The notes under the pieces were generated by a model, which saw nothing but the letters and a program-made list of their open reading frames with translations, was not told the origin of the DNA and ran no database searches. A DNA stretch of 64,000 nt, taken from the sequence record OR062947.1; one strand, written 5' to 3'. The position numbers were made by a program, and so were the translations under genes. Shown one piece after another: positions 53,409 to 59,956 of the stretch. Numbering within the stretch: position 1 is the first letter of the stretch; each line of letters begins with the position of its first letter. The stretch is from Escherichia phage 348Ecol098PP.

Positions 53409-54044
53409 ATGAAAACTACTCCTATTACTATCGCTATTGACGCAATCATAAAACAATCTTCTTCTTTGGCCGCTATGGCCAAAGTAATTAGTCAAAACCC
53501 TGCTCGTTATAATGCTATTCTAGAAACTCTTCGACGTCCGGGACTTAGTAATTATGAAAGTCGTGTAATTATTACAGGTGTTGGTAAGAATGCTAATATT
53601 GCAACTAAAGCTTCTGAGACATTTGCTTCACTCGGTATCCCGAGTATGTACTTGAACACTGGGCATTATTCTCACGGCGATGCAGGATTCATTGCGCCTA
53701 ATGATGTGTTGATTCATATTAGTCGTTCTGGTAAAACTGAAGAAATGATAGGCGTGGCTAAGCATCTTAAAATGATTCGACCGAACGTCAAACAGATTCT
53801 GTTGCATTGTAACCCAGACATTCCACAAGAAAATGAAGCCCTTTTTGATTACTCTTTCTGTACAGGCATCGCAGTAGAGGTTGATGAGAATTCTCTGGCT
53901 CCGACTATGTCCACTACATTGTTGTTAGCGCTTATCGATACGTTTGCTATCAACCTTTCGTCTGAACGTGGATTTACCTCTAATGATTTCCTTAAGTTCC
54001 ATCCAGGCGGTGCACTAGGTGCCATGTTACGAGGCGAGCAATGA
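53409..54044 (+). CDS. SIS-domain sugar-phosphate isomerase (KdsD/GutQ-like arabinose-5-phosphate isomerase core)
   Basis: ITGVGKNANIATKASETFASLGIPS...HGDAG...ISRSGKTEE...LAPTMSTT matches SIS/KdsD pattern. Confidence 0.8.
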   Translation: MKTTPITIAIDAIIKQSSSLAAMAKVISQNPARYNAILETLRRPGLSNYESRVIITGVGKNANIATKASETFASLGIPSMYLNTGHYSHGDAGFIAPNDVLIHISRSGKTEEMIGVAKHLKMIRPNVKQILLHCNPDIPQENEALFDYSFCTGIAVEVDENSLAPTMSTTLLLALIDTFAINLSSERGFTSNDFLKFHPGGALGAMLRGEQ

Positions 54045-54225
54045 AAGCAATAACAATAGGACTTTTACTATTGATGCTTGTCATGACTATCTACTGGAGC
54101 TTAACGGCTCCAGTAATGATTCCAACACTTGTAATTGGATGGATTATGATTGGACTACAAGCAAAGTATGAATGCTTTAACTAGAATAGTGTACAATACT
54201 CCTACTTACCAATGAGGACCACAAC

Positions 54226-56297: not shown

Positions 56298-56351
56298 TAA
56301 TTTAAGTAAGACCTGCAAAAACCATCGCAACAATTAACGCGAGATGCAAAA

Positions 56352-57512
56352 ATGAATACCTTTAAAATCGGAACGAATTTTGATTTAGCTCTTCTTGATA
56401 AAATCGTAGAGCTCAATAAAACTTATCCTAATAGCTTGATAAACGAAGTATACGGCTCTACAAGAGAAATGGCTTTTGTAGCAGCCAGACCTGATTTTAG
56501 GCTTCCTGACGTTGACAAAAAGATGTTAGAAGATTACGTTAAACGTTGTAACGAATTAGGTATTTGCTTTAACTATACACTCAACACGATAAATCCTGGT
56601 TCAAAAAGAGAACTAGTTGAGTGGAAGAAGAAAGCTATTCAGGATTATGTTCAGTATCTTTGGTCAATAGGCGTATGGCGTATTACTATCGCTAACCCTG
56701 TTGTTATGGAAATTGTTCGTGAAGTCAATAAAGACATTGAGATTGAAGTTTCAACAATTCTACATGTCGATGCTGTAACTCAAATCAAATACTTGCATGA
56801 CCAATATAATATCAAAAAGGTCTGCTGTGGAATTCATAAGAACCGTTCAGTTTCTTTCCTGAAGCGTGCAGCAGAGTTTTGCAATAAGAACAATATAATA
56901 TTTGAAGTTCTCGTAAATGAATTCTGCTCTAATGCTGGTAAAGGGTATACAACACATTGTAGTTATCGTGACTCTTGCTATATTTTCCATAGCACCGATG
57001 TTACAGTAGATGATGCCAAATCCTTAAATGGATATCCTATGCAGCACTGTATTAAAGCTCGTGATACAGACCCATTTAACTGGTTGAGAACTCGTTTTGT
57101 TCGTCCTCAAGATTTGAAACTTTATAATGATATTGGTATCACTCAATTCAAAGTTTCAGGACGTACAGGTAGCACCGACTACATTTTGAAAGTTCTTGAA
57201 GCTTATGCTTCTGAAAAGTTTGAAGGTAATTTGTTGGAATTGTGGAAGCCTTTAGAGACTATTTTCACTCTTGAAAATGAGACCGAGTTTTCACATACGG
57301 TAAATATTGAAACCTCTTTGTTAGATGGCTTTTTAGAAAAAAGGTGGTTCAAACATCCAGATTTCGATTGTGCTAATGAAATCTGCGGGACGACGTGTAC
57401 ATATTGTGAAAGATATTATAAACGTCAGTTATCTAAAAATGGGTTAGCAGAAAACTCTATATCTATTATTGATATAACTAACTCTGATGACGCTTTGAGG
57501 TACCCGGAATGA
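56352..57512 (+). CDS. Cys-rich enzyme of unknown function (possible metal / Fe-S binding)
   Basis: 386 aa; Cys clusters C-x10-C-x5-C and C-x5-C-x3-C-x2-C near C-terminus. Confidence 0.6.
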   Translation: MNTFKIGTNFDLALLDKIVELNKTYPNSLINEVYGSTREMAFVAARPDFRLPDVDKKMLEDYVKRCNELGICFNYTLNTINPGSKRELVEWKKKAIQDYVQYLWSIGVWRITIANPVVMEIVREVNKDIEIEVSTILHVDAVTQIKYLHDQYNIKKVCCGIHKNRSVSFLKRAAEFCNKNNIIFEVLVNEFCSNAGKGYTTHCSYRDSCYIFHSTDVTVDDAKSLNGYPMQHCIKARDTDPFNWLRTRFVRPQDLKLYNDIGITQFKVSGRTGSTDYILKVLEAYASEKFEGNLLELWKPLETIFTLENETEFSHTVNIETSLLDGFLEKRWFKHPDFDCANEICGTTCTYCERYYKRQLSKNGLAENSISIIDITNSDDALRYPE

Positions 57513-57670
57513 TTTCTAGAAAAACTTTTAACCACCAACTTAATGAAGAGATTTTGACTATGAAAATTAACAGCAACGAACAAATTCTTAAAAAGGCCCT
57601 TATGGGCCTGTTTGAAACTAAAGCGGCTAAAGTGATTAAAGAAACCTGTTCAACTAGAATACTACGCTGA
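57509..57670 (+). CDS. small hypothetical ORF (53 aa), possibly frameshifted gene
   Basis: ATG overlaps upstream stop; downstream frame continues protein-like to 57749. Confidence 0.3.
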   Translation: MISRKTFNHQLNEEILTMKINSNEQILKKALMGLFETKAAKVIKETCSTRILR

Positions 57671-57745
57671 TGCATTTCTTCATAGTGTTCTTGGAAGTAT
57701 CGATGCTGAAGCTTTACGTTATATCAACATCGCTAAGAAATTCAA

Positions 57746-57772
57746 ATAAGCTTTATGAATTGAGTATATAAT
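57746..57772 (+). promoter_or_regulatory. candidate MotA-dependent middle promoter for gene 42
   Basis: MotA-box-like AAGCTTTA, 11-nt spacer, TATAAT. Confidence 0.45.
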
Positions 57773-57790: not shown

Positions 57791-58507
57791 ATGGGAAAAC
57801 ATAACACAATGAAATATATTAAAGCCGCAGATTTTCAATCCGCATTTAAAGCTGTCAATCGTGAAATTTTAGAAAATCCACAGTTCGTTACTGACTCTCG
57901 TATTGGACGTTGTAATGAAATTGGGTCTATGACAGTAGTTGTTGATACCCCTTCATCATTCAAAATGACCGACCCACGTATTAATCGCATCTCTTATGAA
58001 TATGCTGAAGATTTCTGGAAATTTATGATTTCTGGTGGTACTGATGCAGAAGAAGCATTTAAGGCATATCCTAACGTTGCTAAATTTATTTCTAAACCTA
58101 AATCAGATGCTTTGCCTGCAAACTTCAACACTTTCTACGGTCCACGAATTGCGGCCCAGTTACCAGCTCTTCTCAAAGAACTTAAAGAGAAACCTAATTC
58201 ACGAAGAGTTGTGTTTCAAATTCTTGAAAGTTCAGATCAGGCTTTGCTTGATTCGGATGAAACACTTGAATATCCATGTACTGACTCAGTGACTTATTAT
58301 ATTCGTGATGGTAAGCTTTATACCCACTGTCATATGCGTTCTCAGAACTGTGCTGTTGTTATGCAGTTGGATTTTTATCTCCAAGGAAAATTACTTCATT
58401 ATATCGCTAACGAATGTGGTGTAGAAGTTGGTGATTATACTCATACCATGGTAAGTGCCCATGTGTTTGAACGTGATTTTGATTATGTTAAAGGATTCCT
58501 TGACTAA
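57791..58507 (+). CDS. 42: dCMP hydroxymethylase gp42-like (thymidylate synthase fold)
   Basis: TS-family motifs RRVVFQIL, PCTDSVTYYIRDGKLYTHCHMRSQN, AHVFE; position between 43 and uvsX. Confidence 0.75.
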   Translation: MGKHNTMKYIKAADFQSAFKAVNREILENPQFVTDSRIGRCNEIGSMTVVVDTPSSFKMTDPRINRISYEYAEDFWKFMISGGTDAEEAFKAYPNVAKFISKPKSDALPANFNTFYGPRIAAQLPALLKELKEKPNSRRVVFQILESSDQALLDSDETLEYPCTDSVTYYIRDGKLYTHCHMRSQNCAVVMQLDFYLQGKLLHYIANECGVEVGDYTHTMVSAHVFERDFDYVKGFLD

Positions 58508-59406
58508 TGGCTATTTTCCGCGTACCTATCTTGAGTATGCGGTCTTATGAAACTGGACAGTATGCTATCCTTAAGGATGGCAACTTCCAACTTCATTTGC
58601 ACCGTGCTAATCCGGGTGATGTGATTACATATCCACGTAATGCATCTGATATTAAAGAATGTGAACGTCTTTTCCCAGAATTTAAGTTTGTTCCATTATG
58701 GTATAAAGATAACGCATATAACACTCGTAAATATTTCTGGTCTGAAAATGAATTTGTGGTTGATTCATTAATTGATTATTATGATTGTGATTTTCTAATC
58801 ACAGATATCACTGGATATGACGGTACTTTTGACGTAGAATTCAATTTCAATATCACTGCAGACCCTAATAAACCACGTTTTTATATTGACGAATTCTTAA
58901 AAACCGATATGTTGTCGGTTAATCGTTCACTTCAAACTACTGTGTTGAATAAACGTCAAAAGGAAGTGCTGGTTAACGCTGGTGCCGATGGTAATAAGAT
59001 TATCGTAACCCAGAAAGTTATACGTCCTTCCATCATGCAGCGTCTTGTAGGTGATTTGGCTCCTATTCATCTAGATGGTATTTTTCATCCATTTCGAATT
59101 AGTGATCCGTGCTATCGTTTTGAACAAGTGGTTGAATGCGCGATTCAATTAGGTCAACCGCTTTATATAACCGATCCAAATAATAGCTTCGACAGAAATA
59201 AGTATCCTGAAGAAGCGTTGATTCGAATTTTTAAACCAACTAAAACTGAGTACTATCAAATTCTTAAAGGACGACCGAAGATTCAATATTTCGAAAATCC
59301 TGAAGAAGTATTTCATCCAGGTCTTGGTGAGTTCATCTACTTTAACGCTTTAATTTCTTCGCCGTATAATATACCTAAATATGAAGATGTCGTAATCGAG
59401 GAATAA
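58507..59406 (+). CDS. hypothetical protein in the beta-glucosyltransferase position
   Basis: 299 aa, no resemblance to recalled T4 beta-gt; ATGA coupling to gene 42. Confidence 0.6.
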   Translation: MAIFRVPILSMRSYETGQYAILKDGNFQLHLHRANPGDVITYPRNASDIKECERLFPEFKFVPLWYKDNAYNTRKYFWSENEFVVDSLIDYYDCDFLITDITGYDGTFDVEFNFNITADPNKPRFYIDEFLKTDMLSVNRSLQTTVLNKRQKEVLVNAGADGNKIIVTQKVIRPSIMQRLVGDLAPIHLDGIFHPFRISDPCYRFEQVVECAIQLGQPLYITDPNNSFDRNKYPEEALIRIFKPTKTEYYQILKGRPKIQYFENPEEVFHPGLGEFIYFNALISSPYNIPKYEDVVIEE

Positions 59407-59407
59407 A

Positions 59408-59956
59408 ATGGCTAAAATTATTTTAGTAGATGGCCCAGATAATGCTGGTAAAACAACTTTCATTAATGACATAATGGAAATTAGTGAAAGATATGTAAAG
59501 ATTGATTTCCCTAAACGAACAGTTGATGGACGTTTCGATGTTAAGTCTCGAAATGAAGTTGGCTGTTTCGAAACGATGTTGAATTATTTAGACCCTACTA
59601 AGATTTATCTGTTAGACCGTGGATATATTAGTAACTGGGTTTATGGACGTATTCGACAAGACGCGGACTCGGTTCTTGACGTTTATGAACAGGATTATGT
59701 TCGTCTTTGCCAAAACCATGATGTGTTCACAATTATTTTAACACGTAACGAAATGACTGAAAGTTTTGAAGACGACCTTATTACTTTGTCTTCATTCGGT
59801 TTTAATACAGTCATTTCACATTTTGAAGAGTTTGCAATTCATAACAAAATCCAAACGTATCAATTACTTAATCATGATGGTGCTAACAAAGTTATAGGAT
59901 TTAATGCAAGCGAACGTAATGATTTGATTACAGAAATCATCAAATGGGCTCGTTAA
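59408..59956 (+). CDS. thymidylate-kinase-like P-loop nucleotide kinase
   Basis: P-loop VDGPDNAGKTT and DRGYISNWVYG resembling the TMK DRY motif. Confidence 0.65.
   Translation: MAKIILVDGPDNAGKTTFINDIMEISERYVKIDFPKRTVDGRFDVKSRNEVGCFETMLNYLDPTKIYLLDRGYISNWVYGRIRQDADSVLDVYEQDYVRLCQNHDVFTIILTRNEMTESFEDDLITLSSFGFNTVISHFEEFAIHNKIQTYQLLNHDGANKVIGFNASERNDLITEIIKWAR

Follow-up and report, generated by a model that had tools for sequence, protein, structure and literature searches.

A U32-family protein in the DNA-modification cluster of Escherichia phage 348Ecol098PP as a candidate prephenate-dependent cytosine hydroxylase

What does a cysteine-rich protein contribute to a phage gene cluster for the arabinosylation of DNA? 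The question is raised by a gene in a stretch of 64,000 nucleotides from Escherichia phage 348Ecol098PP (OR062947.1), which was analysed as a whole and is referred to here as the window. The gene encodes a protein of the Peptidase_U32 family (the U32 protein) and lies between genes for the synthesis of an activated sugar and a gene for the synthesis of 5-hydroxy-deoxycytidine monophosphate (5-hydroxy-dCMP). With moderate confidence, we propose that the protein is an O2-independent, prephenate-dependent hydroxylase acting on C5 of cytosine, which would make 5-hydroxycytosine for arabinosylation. The family, the fold, the conserved cysteines, the purifying selection on the gene and its linkage to other genes are observations; that the protein would bind an iron-sulphur (Fe-S) cluster, draw on prephenate, work without O2 and have a substrate and product of the kind proposed below is an inference.

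Family, fold and cysteines of the U32 protein

The gene and the parts of its product that matter to the argument are the following.

56352..57512, + strand: putative U32-family Fe-S protein, 386 amino acids (aa), ortholog of RB69p050 / NP_861740
56631..57209, + strand: Peptidase_U32 core, residues 94-286, from the Pfam match; part of a TIM-barrel-like domain of residues ~1-290
56925..57050, + strand: core cysteine cluster C192-X10-C203-X5-C209-X23-C233, a putative [4Fe-4S] site, invariant in 65 homologs
57369..57407, + strand: C-terminal cysteine cluster C340-X4-C345-X3-C349-X2-C352, by its conservation a candidate second metal site (Fe-S cluster or Zn)

An earlier description of this DNA, made from its letters and called here the sequence-only reading, had placed a cysteine-rich open reading frame (ORF) of 386 aa at this position, and the frame was indeed found to run on the + strand from an ATG at 56352 to a stop codon at 57510-57512, with the opposite strand closed by numerous stops. 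RB69 is annotated with a start at an upstream ATG (MQKMNTF...), but the window has five A residues within 56342-56354 where RB69 has six; because this homopolymer difference shifts the RB69 start codon out of frame, the start was placed at 56352. The gene is under strong purifying selection. It differs from the Bas47 copy by 23 synonymous and 2 nonsynonymous changes (dN/dS 0.02) and from the RB69 copy by 22 and 4 (dN/dS 0.04), and its dN between genera (0.12-0.18) is equal to or below that of the adjacent synthase gene (0.13-0.30).

The protein matched Pfam PF01136 with 42.4 bits (cutoff 22.4) over residues 94-286, and orthologs scored 43.6 and 44.5 bits. PF01136 was the only family found at E <= 0.01; neither DUF3656 nor Peptidase_U32_C (PF16325) matched, so that by domain criteria the protein belongs to neither the RlhA nor the TrhP subfamily, and its score against the UbiU equivalog NCBIfam NF047963 was 19.4 bits, short of the cutoff of 440. 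Secondary structure and fold matches gave the TIM-barrel-like fold of Mk0906 (PDB 5d88), the sole solved U32 structure, which has 247 aa, shares 14% identity with the phage protein and lacks its C-terminal cysteine appendix. A sequence search of PDB chains with the U32 family profile returned a sole match, to BIM1 (E 0.009), which was spurious.

Conservation was followed in an alignment of 65 homologs with 46-87% identity to the window protein, and in 126 broader full-length representatives drawn from an exhaustive hidden Markov model (HMM) search of 1.84 billion proteins. The strand motif 'K-I-E-G-R' is present as FKVSGR (K267, G270, R271), aligned to KIEGR of UbiU, RlhA and TrhP, and K267 and R271 of this 'K..GR' motif are 100% conserved in the 126 representatives. 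E185 aligns with an essential glutamate (E162 in TrhP, E161 in RlhA); it is at least 90% conserved in the 65 homologs and 75% conserved in the broader set. The sequence-only reading had also pointed to two cysteine motifs, EFCSNAGKGYTTHCSYRDSC and DCANEICGTTCTYCE, both of which were found (residues 190-209 and 339-353), and had named beforehand a lack of cysteine conservation as the result that would speak against a metal centre. Nine cysteines (C158, C192, C203, C209, C233, C340, C345, C349 and C352) proved invariant across the 65 homologs, the exceptions being C66, C72 and C159. Of the 126 representatives, 100% have C233 and 98% have C192; each of the four C-terminal cysteines is retained in 85-89% of them, and C203/C209 in ~60%.

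Three of these residues, C203, C209 and C233, align to the proven UbiU [4Fe-4S] ligands C169, C176 and C232 (RlhA C169/C176 and TrhP C170/C177; PMC6747719, PMC6599085). The position of the fourth UbiU ligand is missing from the phage protein; the invariant C192 or C158 could take its place, and C192 is the more probable fourth ligand of a putative [4Fe-4S] cluster. The spacing in UbiU itself is CX6CX16CX38C. By analogy with these relatives, we infer that the U32 protein binds Fe-S. Two other interpretations of the C-terminal cysteines were rejected. A radical S-adenosylmethionine (SAM) protein, which the CxxxCxxC motif might bring to mind, did not fit, as there was no PF04055 match and the motif belongs to a four-cysteine CX4CX3CX2C appendix outside the barrel; and homology to the essential C-terminal cysteine region of RlhA was dismissed because the C-terminal 97 aa showed no sequence similarity to the RlhA C-terminus (BLASTP E = 12).

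The chemistry of the family is known from three systems. RlhA is needed for 5-hydroxycytidine at C2501 of 23S rRNA and requires Fe-S biogenesis genes and prephenate (PMC5727448); TrhP is needed for prephenate-dependent 5-hydroxyuridine in tRNA, alongside the O2-dependent TrhO (PMC6599085); and UbiU/V hydroxylate the ring of ubiquinone without O2, in parallel with UbiI/H/F, which use flavin and O2 (PMC6747719, PMC10990095), with prephenate as the oxygen donor of UbiU/V, as proved by 18O labelling (PMC10990095). Thus, two of the three hydroxylate C5 of a pyrimidine, the same atom as is required in the phage pathway, and in two of the three the U32 enzyme provides the anaerobic one of two routes.

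Each system resembles the phage protein in part. RlhA (YdcP) shares the U32 domain, the essential E161, C169 and C176 (phage E185, C203 and C209) and the same proposed chemistry at C5 of cytosine, and it also has an extra essential C-terminal four-cysteine cluster; but it has 653 aa, carries DUF3656, acts on RNA in the ribosome and spaces its core cysteines as CX6CX15CX3C, whereas the phage protein has 386 aa and the spacing CX10CX5CX23C, is of viral origin and has a gene context that points to deoxynucleotides or DNA. TrhP (YegQ) offers the precedent of a U32 protein for C5 hydroxylation of a pyrimidine paired with an unrelated O2-dependent enzyme for the same product, although its substrate is tRNA, it has a Peptidase_U32_C domain and its aerobic partner TrhO is a rhodanese rather than a flavin-bound ThyA homolog. 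UbiU-UbiV have the U32 fold, with a 'GYP..C' motif common to UbiU and the phage protein, and as a heterodimer they hold two clusters, where the phage protein may hold two in one chain; they differ in their lipid substrate, in working as a heterodimer with UbiT, and in UbiU C193, which lies in an insertion missing from the phage protein.

Neighbouring genes and a chorismate mutase beside U32

The cluster around the U32 gene in the window contains the following genes.

53409..54044, + strand: SIS-domain arabinose-5-phosphate isomerase of the sugar branch (Pfam SIS; PMC13326640)
54226..55911, + strand: bifunctional NTP-transferase/kinase, AfhE-like, maker of UDP-arabinofuranose (Pfam NTP_transferase and kinase-like matches; PMC13326640)
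55896..56297, + strand: HAD-like phosphatase, AfhF-like (PMC13326640), without a Pfam match here
57509..57749, + strand: frameshifted copy of RB69 ORF049c, comprising a 53-aa ORF at 57509-57670 and the remainder in the +1 frame at 57663-57749
57791..58507, + strand: ThyA-family 5-hydroxy-dCMP synthase, ortholog of RB69 gp48 (Pfam Thymidylat_synt)
58507..59406, + strand: glycosyltransferase (GT) 'GT299', ortholog of RB69 gp46:47 (PMC13326640), with phmmer homologs beside distant U32 genes
59408..59956, + strand: thymidylate-kinase-like (Tmk-like) nucleotide kinase, ortholog of RB69p045, of a kind that recurs near distant U32 genes

The sequence-only reading had set the U32 gene between a HAD-type phosphatase and 'gene 42'. 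The position was right, with the phosphatase upstream and the ThyA-family gene downstream, but the label is functionally wrong, since the RB69 ortholog of the latter is a 5-hydroxy-dCMP synthase (PMC13326640) and not a dCMP hydroxymethylase. The window synthase is 99.2% identical to RB69 gp48 (tblastn), which was found by experiment to depend on flavin and O2 (PMC13326640). Synthases of this type (RB69 gp48, DLP3 gp80 and the HY126 homolog) would share product and pathway with the U32 protein, and the synthase gene lies 280 nucleotides (nt) downstream of U32 here; they differ in having an unrelated fold, in using flavin and oxygen from O2 (PMC13326640) and in occurring also in phages of aerobes that lack U32. 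GT299 has been hypothesised to be the first arabinosyltransferase acting on 5-hydroxycytosine (5hoC), and the path from ribulose 5-phosphate (Ru5P) to UDP-arabinofuranose (UDP-Araf) is fully covered by the isomerase, the kinase/pyrophosphorylase and the phosphatase (both PMC13326640). The DNA of the window's phage type carries arabinosyl-5-hydroxycytosine, not arabinosyl-hydroxymethylcytosine.

Directly behind U32 the window has the disrupted ORF049c. Compared with Bas47, it has one additional A at 57642-57644, which causes the frameshift, the intact RB69 version having 79 aa (phrog_8601); PHB12 carries the same truncated allele, so the truncation belongs to a lineage and is no error specific to the window. 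Neither the window ORF (57509-57670; Pfam and NCBIfam) nor the intact RB69 ORF049 (Pfam) gave a match, and the idea that this ORF is a chorismate mutase (CM) was rejected, as hhalign against the phage CM profile returned a probability of 0.09% and the two belong to different groups (phrog_8601 versus phrog_10027 for CM).

In other T4-like phages the gene beside U32 is a CM. It is annotated as such on the gene overlapping the U32 stop codon in Enterobacter phage Entb_45 and Serratia phage LC53, and Pfam CM_2 (34.7-46.8 bits, cutoff 27) was found beside U32 in 8/8 of the T4-like lineages sampled outside Mosigvirus: Kanagawavirus (Entb_45, PEi26), Winklervirus, Marfavirus, Tegunavirus, Gualtarvirus, Bragavirus and Shewanella phage Thanatos-1. 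All eight CMs retain R11, R28, K39, E52, S84 and Q88 of the Escherichia coli PheA mutase domain, with D48 mostly replaced by N and R51 by a hydrophobic residue; we take the six retained residues (AroQ), together with D48 and R51, to be active-site residues of the E. coli CM (EcCM) structure. By tblastn the phage CM occurs in 51 phage records from 12 host genera, each of which also hosts U32-carrying phages, and in 13 of the 51 the coordinates place it within a few hundred bases of U32. The gene order in Thanatos-1 is rearranged (synthase, GT, kinase, U32, CM), yet U32 and CM are still an overlapping pair. A Klebsiella phage SAKp28-like lineage (L028 / PP660556) has the synthase ~30-50 nt behind U32 with no small ORF between. 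Gain or loss of the U32/CM module has occurred repeatedly.

Prephenate is the product of chorismate mutase. The Mosigviruses, among them the phage of the window, in which the slot holds no CM, would depend on host PheA/TyrA for it, while most related phages encode a CM of their own. Host PheA and TyrA are under feedback control by aromatic amino acids, which would make sense of a phage mini chorismate mutase that is presumably unregulated.

The distribution of U32 among phages suggested a relation to oxygen. U32 was found in 221 phage records (Escherichia 136, Klebsiella 26, Shigella 14, Serratia 7, Proteus 7, Yersinia 6 and others including Shewanella), every host being a facultative anaerobe, and the ThyA-family synthase in 373. 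Among synthase-bearing records, 57/57 from Acinetobacter and 20/20 from Rhizobium lack U32, and direct checks of Acinetobacter phage Maestro and Pseudomonas phage PspYZU05 revealed sugar genes, synthase, GT and kinase but no U32 or CM. That U32 is missing from synthase-bearing phages of these three host genera suggests an activity that does not need O2, Dhakavirus being an exception. A strict rule of host lifestyle was rejected as an absolute, because Dhakavirus JS10 infects E. coli and has neither U32 nor CM.

Distant viral relatives of U32

Protein searches revealed, in addition to the T4-like orthologs, many relatives of ~360 aa with 44-58% identity, all on phage-like contigs, and the viral U32 subfamily comprises 478 representative clusters at E <= 1e-30 (about 480 at 50% identity). 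Gene contexts were viewed for 6 metagenomic and 19 non-redundant IMG/VR loci, on contigs of 8-294 kb with 10-kb flanks. The neighbours of these distant U32 genes are homologs of the cluster genes in the window: by non-iterated phmmer, GT299 homologs adjoin them (E 1e-6 to 1e-17), with homologs of the NTP-transferase/kinase (NTPk; E 1e-10 to 1e-45) and of the SIS isomerase (E ~1e-19) near by. The recurring orders are kinase-GT-U32, GT-SIS-NTPk-...-U32 and U32-CM-GT-NTPk, and several loci have kinase-GT-U32 without sugar-activation genes in the vicinity. A Pfam scan of 141 neighbour proteins returned Thymidylate_kin 6 times, SIS 5, DAHP_synth_1, NTP_transferase, Pol III alpha and RecA 4 each, and CM_2 and HAD 3 each. 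Further contexts included dCMP deaminase, dUTPase/DCD, UDG, deoxynucleoside kinase, NT5C, a TET-associated glycosyltransferase (TAGT) and UDP-galactopyranose mutase.

The link to chorismate mutase recurs here. In 5/19 distant viral lineages U32 is linked either to a fusion of 3-deoxy-D-arabino-heptulosonate 7-phosphate (DAHP) synthase with CM, which lies beside U32 in three, or to a stand-alone CM directly after U32, in two; a DAHP_synth_1 gene directly follows U32 in two distant lineages. Combined with the 8/8 T4-like lineages outside Mosigvirus, this linkage suggests that the U32 protein depends on prephenate. DAHP synthase-CM fusions or stand-alone DAHP_synth_1 proteins were seen at L051:8411-9430, L053:7290-8354, L062:11079-12194, L008:8145-8891 and L041:9384-10127. 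The phage DAHP genes beside U32 may provide either an auxiliary, shikimate-pathway supply of prephenate or KdsA-like enzymes for a Kdo-type sugar, the latter for the stand-alone ones near SIS, HAD and NTP-transferase genes.

In none of the distant loci did phmmer, or jackhmmer run for three rounds from gp48 and E. coli ThyA as seeds, reveal a ThyA-family gene less than 10 kb from U32; in every T4-like locus the same search recovered ThyA. In the distant phages, U32 looks like the occupant of the slot for the base-modifying enzyme in an apparent glycosyl-hydroxypyrimidine cluster.

Two contigs deserve separate mention. One locus (L011:5971-9000 and flanks) has a GT299-like GT, U32, a TAGT above the Pfam cutoff, dUTPase/DCD and UDP-galactopyranose mutase, with no TET or ThyA gene in view, a combination that suggests a galactofuranosyl-type hydroxypyrimidine modification begun by U32. 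The TAGT-type GT downstream of U32 in this locus was rejected as a homolog of GT299, to which it shows no similarity, the real homolog being the ORF upstream of U32. A Clostridia-like contig (L006:3891-15428, also L007) with a dockerin-bearing GH43 near by has U32 and a divergent 377-aa U32 paralog, together with a radical SAM/SPASM protein, SAM methyltransferases, a deoxynucleoside kinase, an NT5C nucleotidase and a nucleoside deoxyribosyltransferase; it may represent a different deoxynucleotide modification module, perhaps of methoxy or carboxymethoxy type.

A proposed route to 5-hydroxycytosine and its competitors

The mechanism that we propose is modelled on UbiU/V (PMC10990095), RlhA and TrhP. 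The substrate would bind in the TIM-barrel, and the pyrimidine ring would give up two electrons through a [4Fe-4S] cluster on C203, C209, C233 and probably C192, from which they might pass onward through a second centre on C340-C352. Prephenate would decarboxylate and aromatise to phenylpyruvate, and its C4 hydroxyl would go to C5 of the pyrimidine. As substrate dCMP is the likeliest, because nucleotide kinases and enzymes of the deoxynucleoside monophosphate (dNMP) pool recur beside U32; this assignment, with 5-hydroxy-dCMP as product, is a tentative one in which our confidence stops just short of even. Two routes would then lead to one product, the gp48 synthase serving under aerobic conditions and U32 under anaerobic ones, which would be of value to phages whose gut hosts are facultative anaerobes. 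With an O2-requiring synthase alone, a phage that destroys dCTP would be left without a cytosine nucleotide in the anoxic gut. Whether the proposal extends to the virus-specific subfamily at large is in our judgement evenly balanced: its members would be self-contained prephenate-dependent hydroxylases with two metal centres, acting on a free deoxynucleotide (dCMP, or dUMP in some phages), and would provide an O2-independent start to glycosyl-hydroxypyrimidine hypermodification, being the sole hydroxylase in many uncultured phages and fed by phage shikimate-pathway genes.

Several observations weigh against this proposal. The canonical spacing CX6CX15CX3/4C is lost, so that three ligands align and the fourth is a guess, and no U32 enzyme has so far been reconstituted in vitro (PMC10990095). 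The phage CM profile found no chorismate mutase anywhere in the 64-kb window. Dhakavirus JS10 (L017), with an E. coli host, has the synthase and sugar genes without U32 or CM, and the correlation with aerobic or anaerobic hosts is based on few independent clades. FNR-type sites (TTGAT-N4-ATCAA) occur in the window at chance level (7 found, 7.4 expected) with none near U32, and FNR-type anaerobic regulation of the gene was therefore rejected. The ThyA-like genes of the distant phages could sit outside the 10-kb flanks. Finally, a full-text search found no relevant literature tying U32, prephenate or chorismate mutase to phage DNA modification, but He et al. 2026 and Mahler et al. 2025 lay outside its reach and both may hold relevant or contradicting data.

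The closest competitor keeps the chemistry and changes the substrate: the U32 protein would hydroxylate cytosine already in DNA, post-replicatively, rather than free dCMP. The characterised pyrimidine-hydroxylating U32 proteins do use RNA polymers (PMC5727448, PMC6599085), and one U32 homolog, that of L011, adjoins a TET-associated glycosyltransferase, whose family acts together with hydroxylases of DNA. The phage TET/JBP dioxygenase and TAGT modules follow the same logic of hydroxylase and then glycosyltransferase on cytosine C5 substituents, and the TAGT gene overlaps the U32 homolog in L011; but the TET enzymes are Fe(II)/2-oxoglutarate/O2 dioxygenases acting on 5mC in DNA, and U32 is unrelated to them and presumably O2-independent. 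Linkage to Tmk-like kinases, dCMP deaminase, dUTPase/DCD, deoxynucleoside kinase and NT5C points instead to the mononucleotide pool, the RNA-binding C-terminal domains of TrhP and RlhA are missing from the phage protein, and the replacement of C in RB69 DNA is complete (PMC13326640), as is typical of pre-replicative routes. Action on DNA is thus unlikely in our view. An RNA substrate is less likely by some way. On that reading the protein would be a phage hydroxylase making 5-hydroxyuridine (ho5U34) in tRNA or 5-hydroxycytidine (ho5C) in rRNA, tuning translation during infection, and its place in the cluster would be incidental. The closest characterised activities (TrhP and RlhA) act on RNA, of the four E. 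coli paralogs TrhP scores best by HMM, and T4-like phages encode tRNAs. Against this, linkage to DNA modification and dNMP metabolism is kept in lineages down to 44% identity, Peptidase_U32_C and DUF3656 are lacking, and the host already encodes TrhP and RlhA.

A different departure would put the protein in the sugar branch, as an epimerase, reductase or oxidoreductase of NDP-arabinose synthesis. We know of no U32 member that acts on sugars. The sequence-only reading, which had suggested a metal or Fe-S centre and action on either the sugar or the modified base, is partly supported; the sugar role itself seems to us improbable, ranking between the DNA and RNA substrates. It does have annotation on its side, 'putative enzyme involved in UDP-arabinose biosynthesis' in BASEL and 'Sugar or heterocycle reductase' in a table of NAR 2026, and U32 sits among sugar genes, with SIS, NTP-transferase and DAHP_synth_1-family genes co-occurring in many loci. 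However, the path from Ru5P to UDP-Araf is complete without U32 (PMC13326640); the Acinetobacter phages DLP3 and Maestro carry arabinosyl-5hoC, and Maestro lacks U32 although its cluster has the same sugar genes; U32 is also missing from Dhakavirus JS10 and Pseudomonas phage PspYZU05, both of which have the sugar genes; and neither the chorismate mutase linkage nor the kinase-GT-U32 loci that lack nearby sugar-activation genes would be accounted for. A genuine collagenase-like peptidase, as implied by the database names 'peptidase', 'putative protease' and 'collagenase-like protease', is highly improbable: these names were inherited from the historical U32 label, the characterised members with the conserved cysteines are Fe-S proteins needed for hydroxylation (PMC6747719, PMC10990095), and nine invariant cysteines in this gene context suit redox chemistry and not proteolysis.

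U32/prephenate hydroxylases are already known, but a viral subfamily tied to DNA hypermodification, with altered ligand spacing, an extra cysteine cluster and dedicated CM or DAHP synthase partners, would be new. If the proposal of a prephenate-dependent cytosine hydroxylase is true, the protein would be the first of its kind for the modification of DNA or its precursors, and also the first from a virus. RB69 and other gut phages have a single characterised 5hoC synthase, which uses O2, and the proposal would account for their retaining an anti-restriction DNA coat without oxygen, a point of relevance to phage therapy and to studies of phage defence, which are nearly all aerobic, and it would give a purpose to the chorismate mutase and DAHP synthase genes of phages. 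Many uncultured phages would carry hydroxylated and glycosylated pyrimidines made without a ThyA homolog, and screens for a ThyA signature would therefore miss them. The enzymology of the family has been held back by the missing in vitro assay, the known substrates being a ribosome precursor, tRNA and a polyprenyl lipid; given a U32 protein that is small, soluble and monomeric, soluble dCMP as substrate and a simple read-out by liquid chromatography-mass spectrometry (LC-MS), the mechanism of prephenate-dependent hydroxylation could become directly testable.

Some smaller features of the window remain to be recorded. Sigma-70-like promoters and terminators showed no excess over shuffled controls. 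In the window one intact ORF encodes the NTP-transferase/kinase (561 aa) and another the glycosyltransferase (299 aa); both are split in the RB69 reference (ORF052/053 and ORF046/047), splits that Lee et al. 2026 ascribed to sequencing errors. A 50-aa ORF at 54019-54171 (+ strand) overlaps the end of the SIS gene, and a hypothetical protein of ~47 aa is annotated at the same place in Bas47 and LC53, the LC53 annotation mentioning a transmembrane segment.

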